DNA from: a bacterium
Lineage (GTDB): Bacteria; Patescibacteriota; Minisyncoccia; Minisyncoccales; CG1-02-41-26
DNA length: 39,611 nt
Direction: 5' to 3'
Assembly: GCA_030616605.1 (NCBI GenBank)
Contig: JAUWWY010000002.1
Location: forward strand, 184,867 to 224,477
Shown here one piece after another: positions 3,507 through 39,046 of this stretch (positions are counted from its first letter, which is position 1; each line of letters starts with the position of its first letter). The notes under the pieces were generated by a model that worked only from the letters and a program-made list of their open reading frames with translations, had not been told where the DNA came from and did no database searches. The translations under genes and the position numbers were made by a program.

Positions 3507-3590
3507 TGCCGGGGGAGGGACTCGAACCCTCAAGCTCTTGCGAGCAATGGATTTTGAATCCATCGTGTTTTCCGATTTCACCACCCCGGC
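3507..3590 (-). tRNA. tRNA-Leu(CAA)
   Basis: Minus strand GCCGGGG...atgga-ttCAAaa-tccat, long variable arm, GGTTCGAGTCC, CCCCGGC-A; CCA not encoded. Confidence 0.95.
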
Positions 3591-5682: not shown

Positions 5683-5845
5683 TGCTCGGCAGTCTCTCTC
5701 GCCATCGGACGCGGTCAATTTCCCCAGCGAGGAAATTCCCGCTCCCTCTCGGCCTCGCTCGTCGCCTTCGCCACGTCAGACGTGGCTTCGGCGACACCAT
5801 GCTCGCTCGGCCTGCGAGAGGCCTATGTCAAGAAAGCTGCCTCGC
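5683..5845 (-). repeat. GC-rich structured dispersed element, copy 1 (163 bp), between dprA and topA
   Basis: Reverse complement aligns with 30453-30596 with 8 substitutions, a 1-nt indel and a 20-nt insert; complementary termini. Confidence 0.92.
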
Positions 5846-7163: not shown

Positions 7164-7730
7164 TCAATTAAATTCTGTCATTGCTTTCTCTGTATTTTTA
7201 GTCAAAGCGGTTTTTAAAACTTGGCAAATTTTTTTAATAGTTTTTTTAACAATTTTTTCTTCCTCTTTACTGAATTTCTGAAGCACAAATTTTTCAGAGT
7301 TTTTCGGCTTACCCTTTTTAGGCTGGATTCCAATCCTGACTCTGATAAAATCTTTTGTTCCCAGTTCTTTGATTATTGATTCCACGCCCTTGTGGCCGGC
7401 CGAACCTCGGTTTTTTACAATTCTAATTTTACCTAAAGGCAAATCAATATCGTCATGCACAACTAACAAGTTTGTAGTTTGTAGTTTGTAGTTTGTAGTT
7501 AAAATTTTTACTGCTTTTCCAGAATTATTCATAAAGGTTTGAGGTTTAACTAAGATAATTTTTTTTCTGTCAATCTTTTCTTCAGAAATTAAAGAATTGA
7601 ACTTTTTTGAAACTTTAAAAAAAGGAAAGTTGCTTTCCTTTTGGAATTTATCTAAAACCCGAAACCCGACATTGTGACGAGTTTTGAGATATTTTTTTCC
7701 GGGATTACCCAGACCTACAATTAGAGACAT
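7164..7730 (-). CDS. pth: Peptidyl-tRNA hydrolase
   Basis: LIVGLGNPG, TRHNVGF, KPQTFMNNSG, VVHDD, GHKG, RVRIGI. Confidence 0.97.
   Translation of the reverse strand: MSLIVGLGNPGKKYLKTRHNVGFRVLDKFQKESNFPFFKVSKKFNSLISEEKIDRKKIILVKPQTFMNNSGKAVKILTTNYKLQTTNLLVVHDDIDLPLGKIRIVKNRGSAGHKGVESIIKELGTKDFIRVRIGIQPKKGKPKNSEKFVLQKFSKEEEKIVKKTIKKICQVLKTALTKNTEKAMTEFN
7469..7500. repeat. Perfect 7-bp tandem repeat (AGTTTGT x4.6) inside pth
   Basis: agtttgt agtttgt agtttgt agtttgt agtt; encodes TTNYKLQTTN. Confidence 0.92.
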
Positions 7731-8364: not shown

Positions 8365-9714
8365 ATGGTAAAATTTCAATCACCAACTGGAATGCGCGAT
8401 CTTCTTGAGGAAGATTTTAAACATTTTCAAAAGATTGAAAGAGTTTGTCAAGAAATAGCAAGATTTTATGGTTTTAAGAGAATCGAAACTCCAATTTTAG
8501 AAGAAAGTGCACTCTTTGAGAAAGGAACCGGTTTTAGCACTGAAATTGTCAAAAAGCAGATGTTTAACTTAGAAACCAAAGGAGGAGACCATTTAGTTTT
8601 AAGGCCGGAAGGAACACCCTCGATTGTTCGAGCCTATCTTGAAAAAGGAATGGAAAGTTTGCCAAAGCCAGTTAAGCTTTGGCATTTTGGTCCCTTTTTC
8701 AGGCATGAAAGACCTCAAGCAGGAAGATACCGCCAGTTTTATCAAGCCGGACTTGAATCTTTAGGTAGTGATTCTTGGATTATAGATTCTCAAATTATCC
8801 AAATTTTTTATAATATATTAAAGAGTCTCGGTTTCAAAAATTTAATCGTTGAGATAAACAGCATCGGTGATTCTCAACACAGGGCTTACTACAAAAAAAA
8901 TTTAGTAAGCTATTTAAAAGATTACCGTAACTCTCTTTGTTCAGATTGTAAAAGGAGATTGCGGGAAAATCCCTTAAGAATTTTAGATTGTAAACAAGAG
9001 AAGTGTCAAAAAATTATCAGAGACGGGACTCCTCAGATTATTGATTATCTTTGTAGAAAATGTAATAATCATTTTAAAAATGTCTTAGAAACCTTGGAAG
9101 AATTAGAGATTTCTTACAAGTTGAATCCTTATTTAGTCCGAGGATTAGATTATTATACCAGAACCGTTTTTGAGATTTTTGAAGAAACAGAACCCACCTT
9201 TTTACCCACCAAAGCCACGTCTGACGTGGCGAAGGCGGGCGCCAGGGATACAGAGAGCGAGGAAGAGAAGAATCAGGAGCCCTTAGCTTTAGCTGGAGGG
9301 GGAAGATACGATGATTTAGTGAAATTATTAGGGGGAAAAGAGACACCGGCTTGCGGTGGCGCTTTAGGAGTAGATAGAATAGTTAATTTAATAAAAAAAA
9401 GAACTAAAAAAACTCGGAAAATTATCAAACATAGAATTTTCTTAGCTCAGATAGGAAAATTTCCCAAAATGAAAGCTTTAAAATTGATGGAAAAGTTTAG
9501 AAAATCTGAAATTAAAATAGCCGAAGCTTTGGATAAAGATTCACTTTCGAGTCAATTGAAATTAGCTGATAAATTGAAGGCTGAATATGTTTTAATTTTG
9601 GGTCAAAAAGAGACCCTTGAAGAAAAAATAATTTTAAGGAATATGAAAACGGGTAAGCAGAAGATAATAGCGATAAAAAAAATAGTTGGAGAAGTTAAAA
9701 AGAAAACAAAATAA
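8365..9714 (+). CDS. hisS: Histidyl-tRNA synthetase, with an in-frame palindromic insert
   Basis: LRPEGT, FRHERPQAGRYRQF, LVRGLDYY, GGGRYD, GVDR. Confidence 0.97.
   Translation: MVKFQSPTGMRDLLEEDFKHFQKIERVCQEIARFYGFKRIETPILEESALFEKGTGFSTEIVKKQMFNLETKGGDHLVLRPEGTPSIVRAYLEKGMESLPKPVKLWHFGPFFRHERPQAGRYRQFYQAGLESLGSDSWIIDSQIIQIFYNILKSLGFKNLIVEINSIGDSQHRAYYKKNLVSYLKDYRNSLCSDCKRRLRENPLRILDCKQEKCQKIIRDGTPQIIDYLCRKCNNHFKNVLETLEELEISYKLNPYLVRGLDYYTRTVFEIFEETEPTFLPTKATSDVAKAGARDTESEEEKNQEPLALAGGGRYDDLVKLLGGKETPACGGALGVDRIVNLIKKRTKKTRKIIKHRIFLAQIGKFPKMKALKLMEKFRKSEIKIAEALDKDSLSSQLKLADKLKAEYVLILGQKETLEEKIILRNMKTGKQKIIAIKKIVGEVKKKTK
9205..9239 (+). repeat. Palindromic module in frame in hisS; 26 nt identical to part of the topA-upstream element
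   Basis: cccacc-aaa-gccacgtc-t-gacgtggc-gaa-ggcggg; 9212-9237 is the exact reverse complement of 5763-5788. Confidence 0.9.
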
Positions 9715-9737: not shown

Positions 9738-10061
9738 ATGTCTTGTCTTTTTTGTAAAATCATAAATAAAGAAATGCCTTCGGAAATAGTTTACGAAGAT
9801 GATAAAATTCTTACTTTTAAAGACATAAATCCGAAAGCGCCGATTCATTTTTTAATTGTTCCCAAAAAGCATATTGAATCAATAAAATCTTTAAATTCAG
9901 AAAGAATAGTAGATAGCTTGATTTTGGCAGCAAAAAATATTGCTGAAAAAAATAAAATTTCAGGATACAAATTAGTTTTTAATGTAGGTCGAGAAGGAGG
10001 TCAGTTAATAGACCATTTACATTTACATTTCCTAGCTGGAAAACCAATAAAAATACCCTAA
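9738..10061 (+). CDS. HIT-family nucleotide-binding protein
   Basis: CLFCKI, DINPKAPIHFLIVPKKH, HLHLH triad. Confidence 0.93.
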   Translation: MSCLFCKIINKEMPSEIVYEDDKILTFKDINPKAPIHFLIVPKKHIESIKSLNSERIVDSLILAAKNIAEKNKISGYKLVFNVGREGGQLIDHLHLHFLAGKPIKIP

Positions 10062-10283
10062 ATGCCTTTAAAAGTTCAAAAACAAGGTAGAGAGTCTTCG
10101 TGGAATTTAATTCGCCGCTTTTCCCAGAAAATTCGCAAAAGCGGGCTTTTAGTTGAAACAAGAAAAAGAATGTTTAAAAGAAAGAAGAAAAGTCATCAAT
10201 TAAAGAAAAGATCAGCTTTAAGAAGAGAGCAAAAAAAGAAAGAATATGAAAGATTGAAAAAAATGGGGAAAAATTTAAAATGA
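10062..10283 (+). CDS. rpsU: Probable 30S ribosomal protein bS21
   Basis: Small basic protein ES...LIRRF......SG....R...F; hisS-HIT-rpsU-ybeY order. Confidence 0.75.
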   Translation: MPLKVQKQGRESSWNLIRRFSQKIRKSGLLVETRKRMFKRKKKSHQLKKRSALRREQKKKEYERLKKMGKNLK

Positions 10284-19823: not shown

Positions 19824-20729
19824 ATGGAGTTTAAAAAAAATGTTCTGTTGAAAAATTATACCACCTTTAAAATTGGGGGAAGAGCAAAATATTTTTTAAA
19901 AGCAAAAACAAAAGAAGAACTAATTAAGGCAATTAAGATTGCTGAGCAAAAAAAATTGCCTTTTTTTATTTTGGGCAAAGGAAGTAATTTATTGGTTTCT
20001 GATAAAGGATTTAATGGATTGGTAATAAAAATAGAAACTAGAGACTACAAACTAGAAACTGACAAAATTTATGCCCAGGCCGGAATAGAACTAGCCCAAA
20101 TAGTAGATTTTGTGGCAAAAAAATCGCTTACTGGTTTAGAATGGGCAAAAGGGATTCCCGGAACAATAGGAGGAGCTATTTTTGGAAATGCTGCTGCTTT
20201 TAAAAATTCAATAGGAAATTTTATTGAAGAAGTAGAATGTCTTGAGATTGAACCCTCTTTAAAGGTTCAACCCCCCAAAATTAGAATCTTCAATAATAAA
20301 GATTGTGAGTTTAACTTCAAAGATAGCATTTTTAAAAAAAACAAAAATCTCATAATTCTCGCTTGTATAATTCAGCTAAAAAAAGGAGACAAGAAAGAGA
20401 TTAAAAAAAAGATGAAATATTTTTTAAATTATAGAAAAAGAAGTCAACCTTTAAAATTTCCCTCAGCTGGCTGTGTGTTTAAAAACCCCCTTAGAATTCC
20501 GACAGCAGAATTAATTGATAAATCTGGCTTAAAAGGGAGAAAAATTGGCAGAGCCATGATTTCCAAGAAGCATGCGAATTTTATTATCAATCTGGGAGGG
20601 GCTGAGGCAAAAGACGTTTTAAAACTGATTAATTTAATAAAAAAAGAAGTCAAAGAGAAATTTAGAATTGAACTTGAAGAAGAAATATCAAAAGTAGGGG
20701 TTGACATCTCTTCTTATAATTTGGAATAA
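19824..20729 (+). CDS. murB: UDP-N-acetylenolpyruvoylglucosamine reductase
   Basis: YTTFKIGG.A, LGKGSNLLV.D, GIPGTIGGA, PSAGCVFKNP, SKKHANFIIN, LEEEI; start at MEFKK. Confidence 0.95.
   Translation: MEFKKNVLLKNYTTFKIGGRAKYFLKAKTKEELIKAIKIAEQKKLPFFILGKGSNLLVSDKGFNGLVIKIETRDYKLETDKIYAQAGIELAQIVDFVAKKSLTGLEWAKGIPGTIGGAIFGNAAAFKNSIGNFIEEVECLEIEPSLKVQPPKIRIFNNKDCEFNFKDSIFKKNKNLIILACIIQLKKGDKKEIKKKMKYFLNYRKRSQPLKFPSAGCVFKNPLRIPTAELIDKSGLKGRKIGRAMISKKHANFIINLGGAEAKDVLKLINLIKKEVKEKFRIELEEEISKVGVDISSYNLE
20032..20060 (+). repeat. Degenerate 7-bp tandem repeat in murB
   Basis: tagaaac tagagac tacaaac tagaaac; one unit matches the pth repeat read on its coding strand. Confidence 0.75.
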
Positions 20730-30452: not shown

Positions 30453-30596
30453 GCGAAGGCAGATCTCTTGCCATAGGCCTCTCGGAGGCCGAGCGGGCAT
30501 GGTGTCGCCGAAGGCGACGAGCGAGGCCGAGAGGGAGCGGCAATTTTCTCGCTGGGGAAATTGACCGCGTCCGATGGCGGGAGAGACTGCCGAGCA
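30453..30596 (+). repeat. GC-rich structured dispersed element, copy 2 (144 bp), upstream of pgk
   Basis: 94 of 144 bases are G/C (hand count); aligns with the reverse complement of 5683-5845. Confidence 0.92.
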
Positions 30597-33417: not shown

Positions 33418-33778
33418 AAGTTCAAGTAGGCAAGGCAACCGCCCTTTACCTTTAGTTAAAGGTGAAGGGAGGAAAGTCCGAACACTCATTCCATTTGGTC
33501 TAAAAAAGTAGCGGGTAACACCCGTCGCTAGTAATGGTAGAGGTGCGAACAGAGACGTGCGAGGCCGAAAGGCCGAGCACCCCGTCGAATGACGGGGCAG
33601 TCCTCGAGTAATCGAGGGGTGAAACGGCTAAATCCTTACTGGGTGCAAGAAGAAACTCTTTGGACATTCTCCGGATTTGCCCAAAGAGAAAAAGTGCTTC
33701 GCTAGAGCCAAGGAGTAATCTTTGGCCCAGATAAATGGTTGTCCTCGACAGAATTCGGCTTATTGCCTGCTTGAACTT
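33418..33778 (+). ncRNA. rnpB: RNase P RNA
   Basis: GAGGAAAGTCCG and ACAGAATTCGGCTTA (P4), GTGCGAACAGA, GGTGAAAC, GGGTGCAAG; terminal helix aagttcaagtaggcaa/ttgcctgcttgaactt. Confidence 0.96.
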
Positions 33779-36060: not shown

Positions 36061-36134
36061 GCGGGGTTAGTTGATCGGTTCAACGTAACCTTCCCAAGGT
36101 TGAGAGGCGGGTTCGACTCCCGTACCCCGCTCCA
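36061..36134 (+). tRNA. tRNA-Gly(CCC)
   Basis: GCGGGGT...taacc-ttCCCaa-ggttg...GGTTCGACTCC...ACCCCGC-T-CCA. Confidence 0.95.
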
Positions 36135-36157
36135 GTTTACACTGAGCTTGTTGAAGT
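36134..36157 (+). repeat. tRNA 5' leader repeat, copy 2
   Basis: agtttacactgag-cttgt-tgaagt directly before tRNA-Thr. Confidence 0.75.
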
Positions 36158-36229
36158 GCCGGAGTAACTCAGTGGTAGAGTAGCTATCTCGTAAATAGCA
36201 AGTCGTGGGTTCGATTCCCCCCTCCGGCT
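36158..36229 (+). tRNA. tRNA-Thr(CGT)
   Basis: GCCGGAG...gctat-ctCGTaa-atagc...GGTTCGATTCC...CTCCGGC-T; CCA not encoded. Confidence 0.94.
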
Positions 36230-38972: not shown

Positions 38973-39046
38973 TGCGGGGTGGTGTAATGGTAGCACTCGA
39001 GATTCTGGCTCTCGTAATCTAGGTTCGAATCCTAGCCCCGCAGCCA
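38973..39046 (+). tRNA. tRNA-Gln(CTG)
   Basis: TGCGGGG...cgaga-ttCTGgc-tctcg...GGTTCGAATCC...CCCCGCA-G-CCA. Confidence 0.95.

Follow-up and report, generated by a model that had tools for sequence, protein, structure and literature searches.

Two copies of a GC-rich folded element lie in a 39,611-nt stretch of a genome of the order Minisyncoccales, phylum Patescibacteriota (GenBank assembly GCA_030616605.1, contig JAUWWY010000002.1, positions 184,867 to 224,477), which in its whole length is called the window here. We consider the element to be a structured, non-autonomous mobile repeat of Patescibacteria (the Candidate Phyla Radiation, CPR), and not a regulator or a small-RNA gene, with a probability of roughly two in three. 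Copy A (163 nt, 5683-5845, minus strand) and copy B (144 nt, 30453-30596, plus strand) are lineage-specific insertions into the dprA-topA and traD-like–pgk junctions, respectively, and it is incidental that they stand 5' of topA and pgk; they now contribute at most to the leaders of those genes. Junctions of a few bases in relatives, a copy number that ranges from 0 to 13 per genome, clusters of copies within single genomes and near-identical copies in different families together argue that the element is mobile. Less certain is how it moves: we tentatively propose movement at the DNA level, in which an enzyme acts in trans on the folded single strand and insertion or survival is linked to replication.

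An earlier note on the window had counted 8 substitutions between the two copies, besides gaps of 1 and 20 nt, and realignment returned exactly these figures. The GC content is 64.4% in copy A and 65.3% in copy B, compared with 33.2% across the window. Copy A lies in the sense orientation 10 nt before the ATG of topA and copy B, which is sense to both of its neighbours, 16 nt before the ATG of pgk; the two genes were identified with Pfam (Topoisom_bac, Toprim and Zn_ribbon_Top1 for topA, PGK for pgk), and the upstream neighbours are dprA for copy A and a TraD/TrwB-like gene for copy B. Within each copy stands an ATG that shares the frame of the gene that follows, 33 and 39 nt ahead of it, respectively; this is probably chance. 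The genome from which the window comes (G000; 632,766 bp, 34% GC, 8 contigs) holds a third full copy (G000:C4:4928-5079) in the interval that separates the pnp stop codon from the gene that follows, and this copy is antisense to both neighbours.

Empty sites and distribution

The junctions that are filled in G000 are only a few bases long in most relatives, which are the empty sites that the earlier note had proposed to look for. At the pgk junction, 17 relatives of the family have the same upstream gene, with a product ending in ...PGE..KF, and the spacer between this gene and pgk measures 2-11 nt in 14 of them and 48-78 nt in the other three, as against 201 nt in G000. None of the 29 relatives' loci holds a copy in the junction between the upstream gene and pgk, and three hold one elsewhere in the locus. 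At topA, an open reading frame (ORF) on the same strand, often the end of a dprA-type gene, lies 2-37 nt upstream in 15 of 26 relatives and 211 nt upstream in G000, and the element was found at 0 of 29 relatives' topA loci. In one relative, G029, an antisense copy is found 41 nt ahead of pgk; the spacer there measures 205 nt, as against 30 nt in its congener G030. Copies are also found inside conserved operons, for example in the rplB–rpsS junction of G004.

Two further observations concern the genes at these junctions. Contigs break within the 5' part of pgk in three relatives (G024, at L166, G024:C27:4-957; G017; and G005), and an upstream repeat could be the cause. A second frame of 96 aa at the end of a 2.8-kb contig of the window's genome (G000:C3:2574-2849) is 63% identical to the first 92 residues of TopA and could be a paralogue fragment, strain variation or contamination.

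The distribution of the element is patchy. A BLAST search of 39 genomes of the family found near-full-length relatives in two other genera. A covariance model built from 8 sequences (R1), with which copies A and B score 147.9 and 153.1 bits, gave 28 matches in 8 of the 39 family genomes, 12 of them in one genome; a second model built from 30 matches, with one helix added by hand (R2), gave 225 matches in 64 of 151 sampled genomes of the order, with 1-11 per carrier. In a phylum-wide sample, R2 was positive in 11 of 151 genomes, 9 of which are among the 147 from outside the order, with up to 13 copies. Together with the third copy in G000, the 225 matches bear on the matter of copy number that the earlier note had raised. 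A pattern of three sequence blocks, which is noisy, picked out 53 stretches in viral contigs, and the model confirmed none of the 53.

A tree of 102 copies contains within-genome clusters (in G029, G141, G004 and G162) and also several subfamilies inside one genome. A copy in G079 (family f42) is 93.9% identical to a copy in G067 (family f30) at a non-orthologous site with different flanking genes, while the best pair within G067 reaches 85% identity.

Some individual arrangements were recorded alongside. Two copies of different subfamilies in G043:C3 stand head to head, 248 nt apart (L118:9567-9713 on the minus strand and 9962-10108 on the plus strand), and are the only clear pair of opposite orientation on one stretch. 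In G067:C1, at about 466585-466610 and 500150-500190 (L105 and L107), short remnants of element ends (GCTCGGCAGG... and ...GCGAGGTAACAAGTTTCAGAG) lie directly beside full copies, which suggests repeated insertion or replacement at one junction. A copy in a genome of another order (G233:C21, L254:1501-1654) lies 10 nt upstream of the tmRNA gene (1665-2071) in the same orientation.

The earlier note did not recognise the family, and neither does Rfam at gathering or permissive thresholds. With Rfam 15, the whole window at the gathering threshold gave only RNase P RNA and 4 tRNAs; the region of copy A at E<=10 gave three chance-level matches, of which the best-scoring over the element, atpB, reached 11.5 bits where 37.4 is the cut-off; and 15 diverse members at E<=1 gave nothing over the element. 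No description of such a CPR repeat was found in full-text searches of the literature and one preprint term search, supplementary motif catalogues lying outside their scope. The remaining GC-rich islands of the window are those of RNase P RNA (class A, 137 bits) and the four tRNA genes (33423-33777, 3507-3590, 36061-36229 and 38973-39043).

The element contains no ORF. In the 24-nt flanks of 87 copies, direct repeats occur as often as in permuted flanks (33 against 32.7 +/- 4.3 for k=5; 10 against 10.4 +/- 2.9 for k=6), and a MITE (miniature transposable element with inverted repeats) derived from a DDE transposon was rejected on the ground that there is no target-site duplication beyond chance. 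Inverted repeats, by contrast with permuted flanks, are enriched (19 against 3.6 +/- 1.7 for k=7), which means that the closing stem extends into copy-specific sequence. It was considered whether this extension was a palindrome already present in the target of G029; the 'empty' form has 0 matches there, and thus the extended stem belongs to the element. Empty sites, a variable copy number and the lack of a direct-repeat excess bear out one of the two readings offered in the earlier note, namely a non-autonomous mobile element without a visible transposase or target duplication.

Fold and covariation

The element is a three-way junction of five helices, P1 to P5, in 140-200 nt, and each copy folds on its own G-rich strand. 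P1 is a long closing stem, whose 5' strand in copy B occupies 30453-30477 on the plus strand and starts with GCGA(A)GG (helix 2 of the alignment: double-sided changes in 19 of 19 pairs, 95.5% of cells paired), and whose 3' strand (30573-30596) ends in CCGAGCA and includes the ATG in frame with pgk (30574). The base of P1 is near-invariant, 5' GCGAGG / CCGAGC 3', and consists of two G-C pairs, a tandem G.A and two more G-C pairs, the tandem step being made by the G-A of the 5' strand with the CCGAGC of the 3' end. The first arm comprises P2, P3 and P4 with an invariant unpaired GCAUGGU, and the second is P5 capped by an invariant CGCUGG. The 5' strands of P2 and P3 (CCUCUCG, a bulge and GGCCGAGCG) lie at 30478-30496, and their 3' strands (GAGCGAGGCC and GAGAG) at 30519-30533; P3 (helix 4) has double changes in 9 of 9 pairs with 83% of cells paired, and P2 (helix 3), at 70.8% paired, is the weakest helix. 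The conserved bulge GCAUGGU (30497-30503; alignment consensus GCAtGGt) is followed by P4, a variable hairpin GUCGCC-GAA-GGCGAC (30504-30518; helix 5, double changes in 6 of 6 pairs) that tolerates insertions. The P5 arm (30534-30572; helix 6, double changes in 12 of 13 pairs, 90.7% paired) carries the conserved apical loop CGCUGG at 30550-30555. P3 covaries through many different sequences, and that of G000 holds a second CGAG/CGAG step.

The 20-nt insert that the earlier note had seen in copy A is a unit of a small palindrome, CCACGTCTGACGTGG (5771-5785), nested at the tip of P4 with a CGAAG repeat on each side (5766-5790); copy B has a single CGAAG at this place. The palindrome is a separate repeat that is present elsewhere in the genome. 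It recurs at 9215-9229 of the window (context 9200-9290) with a CAAAG/CGAAG flank, in frame within the histidyl-tRNA synthetase gene (ORF 8365-9714), where it sits in a GC-rich stretch that separates the catalytic core from the anticodon-binding domain. Contig C7 holds two more copies of it, flanked by CTTCG or CTTTG, and one related palindrome (C7:1273, 14916 and 21571).

Covariation, which the earlier note had named as a check on its hand-folded stems, shows these stems to be real and adds P3, which the hand folding had missed. Among 69 aligned matches, a set that includes three weak reverse-strand self-hits, 86.8% of cells form standard pairs, compared with 60.7% after shuffling, and 0 of 500 shuffles reach the observed value; because the alignment was fitted to the covariance model, it favours the structure. 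In a control with slid partners 41-48% of cells are paired. Changes on both sides were seen in 56 of the 58 pairs, a count that takes in P3 after it had been put in by hand.

Selection for the fold favours one strand. Across 102 distinct copies, 42 well-paired columns contain 194 G.U pairs and 92 A.C combinations, with two positions at 46:0 and 40:0, and the conserved tandem G.A becomes pyrimidine mismatches on the opposite strand. Folded as RNA, the strand of copy B that we describe reaches -80 kcal/mol (z -5.9, 0 of 200 shuffles as good) and the other strand -59.2 kcal/mol (z -3.2); the DNA fold energies are -40.5 and -32.2, respectively. The excess of G.U over A.C, the tandem G.A and these energies indicate that selection acts on the fold of one strand. 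Stems covary freely and loops are invariant. At the tips of P4, triloops account for 56 of 103 loops, the commonest being C[GAA]G with 26 of 103, a tip that is typical of very stable DNA mini-hairpins.

Orientation and the mode of movement

The folding strand lies almost always opposite the G-rich strand of the chromosome. In the complete genome G067 (639,534 bp), cumulative GC skew puts the origin near 300 kb, where gene direction also switches, and 9 of 9 copies have the folding strand opposite the G-rich strand. Judged by 20-kb local GC skew, 47 of 48 copies in 11 further genomes do so as well, as do 9 of 15 in a third set (G004, G016, G024, G029 and G101; 0 of 3 in G016) and 2 of 3 in G000 (copy A and the copy after pnp, but not copy B, which sits on the G-rich strand). 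This makes 67 of 75 copies with the folding strand opposite the G-rich, leading strand, a count in which related genomes are not independent; the skew would place the folding strand on the leading-strand template. All 10 copies between convergent or divergent genes keep the rule. Copy A is sense to its neighbours, yet those are lagging-strand genes, and thus it still obeys.

Flanking genes were called on both sides of 59 copies. Of these copies, 36 run antisense to the two neighbours, 9 run in sense with them and 14 are mixed, on crude calls of stop-to-stop ORFs of at least 100-120 codons. Most antisense copies abut the upstream stop codon with their 3' end, the terminal TTA of the element being TAA on the other strand, and a spacer lies between the 5' end of the element and the next start codon. 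The neighbouring genes across the family have unrelated functions. Copies recur at certain junctions, namely downstream of rplC (5 genomes of 3 families), a galT-like gene (4 genomes), frr (3), rpsG (2) and fusA (2), where the names are a reading of C-terminal peptides and not the result of family searches. The tree groups these copies by site only in part, and the recurrent junctions may be old retained insertions or preferred sites.

The enzymes that might mobilise such an element were looked for in its carriers. Neither a reverse transcriptase (RVT_1) nor a TnpB domain was found in five element-bearing genomes (0/5 each). The earlier note had pointed to HUH/RAYT transposases, and this link turned out to be weak. 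The one Y1_Tnp gene of G000, which is RAYT-like and encodes 257 aa (G000:C4:35327-36100; L081:1210-1983, minus strand), is not near any copy, and it is accompanied by another hairpin, CACCGTCCCGACCGGTG, immediately before the gene, within it in frame, and immediately behind it. Searching with R2 out to 1.5 kb from Y1 genes at 5 loci gave only weak, hairpin-sized matches of at most 23.6 bits. There is a loose statistical association: of 151 genomes, 45 have both the element and Y1_Tnp, 19 the element without it, 33 Y1_Tnp without the element and 54 neither (odds ratio 3.9, Fisher p 1.3e-4, in a sample whose related genomes do not count as independent). A RAYT as the mobiliser was rejected, as no copy lies beside a Y1 gene at the 5 loci and the gene of G000 has CACCGTCCCGACCGGTG as its own hairpin; because of the missing adjacency, the Y1-free carriers and the different hairpin, the element is not filed as a REPIN. 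The second motif of the Y1 protein reads ...FQNRF... in G000 and ...FQGRY... in the relative G067.

Signals of independent transcription were also looked for. Over 87 copies no position from -40 to -9 exceeds 0.30 bits, as a conserved promoter would, and no U-tract is conserved after the 3' end. Copy A is preceded by one promoter-like site, which ends at a distance of 9 nt, and copy B by none; no terminator-like site was found at copy A or over copy B.

The absence of a reverse transcriptase and of a promoter, an orientation linked to the replichore and hairpin tips of the DNA type speak for an intermediate made of DNA and for a trans-acting enzyme. The element would then move as DNA and not through an RNA intermediate, a putative mobilising protein would recognise the folded single strand in trans, and insertion or survival would be tied to replication; this coupling is proposed because the folding strand is almost always opposite the leading strand. 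Single-strand transposition of the IS200/IS605 type acts on the lagging-strand template. Since the polarity of our element is the opposite of this and no enzyme was identified, we infer the mechanism from these features of the copies.

A different and rather doubtful possibility is an undescribed mode of DNA movement, in which a protein-less folded strand is copied or inserted with the replication fork on the strand opposite to that of IS200/IS605, or else a replichore-polar structural signal that the host has adopted. Under such a mode, the element might enter in the form of nascent lagging-strand DNA or alongside it, or by way of the leading-strand template, some enzyme other than a classical RAYT, TnpB or a reverse transcriptase would be at work, and the GCAUGGU and CGCUGG motifs might be the handle for a partner protein.

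Several points weigh against a mobile repeat that moves as folded DNA. Functional RNAs just as typically have G.U wobbles, a tandem G.A and loops that do not vary. A folding strand on the leading-strand template means that a simple IS608-like route does not fit. No mobilising enzyme was found, the sole HUH/Y1 gene of G000 carries a different hairpin, and 19 of the 64 carriers, including some with 11 and 9 copies, have no Y1_Tnp match. Of 75 copies, 8 depart from the orientation rule, including copy B and 3 of 3 in G016; GC skew and gene direction are strongly collinear, so that replication and transcription are only partly separated; and the flanking ORFs were called crudely. Finally, the recurrence of sites across families could mean that these are old, retained and possibly useful insertions.

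Alternative readings and related repeats

Much of what is known of the fold would also suit a multi-copy gene for a trans-acting small RNA or the RNA of a ribonucleoprotein, with each copy transcribed singly from the folding strand and with GCAUGGU and CGCUGG binding a protein or another RNA. The covariation is very strong and the unpaired motifs are invariant, G.U is in excess on one strand, the GC content is high in an AT-rich genome as in tRNA and RNase P RNA, and copy A has its promoter-like site 9 nt upstream. We nevertheless regard such a gene as improbable: no promoter stands at a fixed distance in the 87 copies, and there is none before copy B; most copies would run head-on to replication and to both neighbours, often in ribosomal-protein operons; the element is patchy (64 of 151 genomes), with 0-13 copies per genome; relatives have empty sites; and near-identical copies occur in different families.

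The placement of the copies raises the question of whether they serve the host as mRNA 'punctuation' in operons. Here, the complementary strand would form a large hairpin past the upstream stop codon and in this way lend stability to the mRNA or bring about its processing, which REP/BIME and ERIC are able to do, and mobility would be secondary. This would account for the 36 of 59 copies that lie antisense between co-directional genes, for the 3' ends flush with upstream stop codons, and for the recurrence of junctions after rplC, rpsG, fusA and frr in several families. The mRNA would, however, carry the worse-folding strand, with A.C and pyrimidine mismatches in place of G.U and G.A, and sense copies exist (9 of 59). 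Flush placement is expected in any case, because the junctions are a few bases long and the ribosome-binding site of the next gene must survive. The chance that host benefit of this kind explains the element is therefore small.

Least probable by far is the other reading of the earlier note, a shared cis-regulatory leader RNA of the riboswitch or attenuator kind for topA and pgk, to which the sense orientation of copies A and B 10 and 16 nt before start codons and their in-frame ATGs had lent some colour, and which is contradicted by orientation and distribution: the third copy in G000 is antisense after pnp, relatives' junctions are 2-11 nt at both places, 0 of 29 relatives' topA loci hold the element, the G029 copy before pgk has the opposite orientation, and the neighbouring genes across the family are functionally unrelated. 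Given the antisense third copy and the family counts (36 of 59 antisense to both neighbours, 9 of 59 sense to both), a position 5' of housekeeping genes and in sense belongs to these two insertions and not to the family.

As a structured, non-autonomous mobile repeat, the element can be compared with several known families. The closest described system is bcr1, a group A interspersed repeat of the Bacillus cereus group of about 155 bp that, in the account of PMC3184786, is regarded as a non-autonomous mobile element. According to the same account (PMC3184786), bcr1 is likewise gene-less, not conserved in distribution between relatives, and kept in a branched fold by compensatory changes, all at a similar size. 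It differs in having 5-bp direct repeats and in being transcribed, as that account also has it (PMC3184786), whereas the CPR element has no direct repeats above chance. Unlike bcr1, the CPR element folds into a three-way junction whose loops do not vary and is oriented with respect to the replichore; it also belongs to another phylum and has another sequence.

REP and REPIN repeats are thought to act as folded single-stranded DNA and to be mobilised in trans by a single-copy RAYT gene, as outlined in PMC3337134 and PMC3116915; a REP measures 20-40 nt, and a REPIN is a simple pair in inverted arrangement whose end tag is conserved, in the terms of PMC3733652. With these the CPR element shares the character of a GC-rich hairpin repeat in intergenic DNA, and its presence goes loosely with that of Y1_Tnp genes (45 of 64 carriers against 33 of 87 other genomes, not all independent); it differs as a 140-200-nt three-way junction of five helices and in having no copy by a Y1 gene (5 loci).

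IS200/IS605 elements make no target duplication, depend on single-stranded DNA hairpins and have a strong orientation bias relative to replication. The CPR element resembles their miniature derivatives, the palindrome-associated transposable elements, in the first and third of these family features and, if it moves as folded DNA, in the second. Its 5' and 3' ends, however, pair with each other, whereas IS200/IS605 has separate left-end and right-end hairpins; there is also no TnpB (0 of 5 carriers), and the best-folding strand is opposite to that expected for the IS608 type.

ERIC/IRU, Correia/CREE and RUP are, as summarised in PMC3184786, intergenic repeats of 100-160 bp that form long hairpins and are often co-transcribed. 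The CPR element is like them in size class, intergenic position and folding into long hairpins. They have terminal inverted repeats and a TA duplication, and the CPR element has no duplication; unlike such TA-targeting MITEs, it has a G.A step in the closing stem, and its most conserved bases are internal and unpaired. For each of REPIN/RAYT, IS200/IS605 miniatures and TA-targeting MITEs, the CPR element lacks one or more of the defining features that were tested.

One further repeat in the window is separate from all of these: AGTTTGT heptamers stand in tandem within a minus-strand ORF at 7469-7521, with an inverted partial match 12.5 kb away at 20015-20060.

The genomes of Patescibacteria are among the smallest and most tightly packed, and the element adds 150-200 bases to junctions that are otherwise 2-11 bases long, even in operons of ribosomal proteins. 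Near-complete covariation, unpaired motifs that are invariant across the phylum and an orientation tied to the replichore are an unusual trio for a bacterial repeat, and they give a handle on a candidate mobilising or binding protein. The element is also a possible marker of replication direction in fragmentary CPR assemblies, and its covariance model would keep such segments of CPR genomes from being misread as riboswitches or small-RNA genes.

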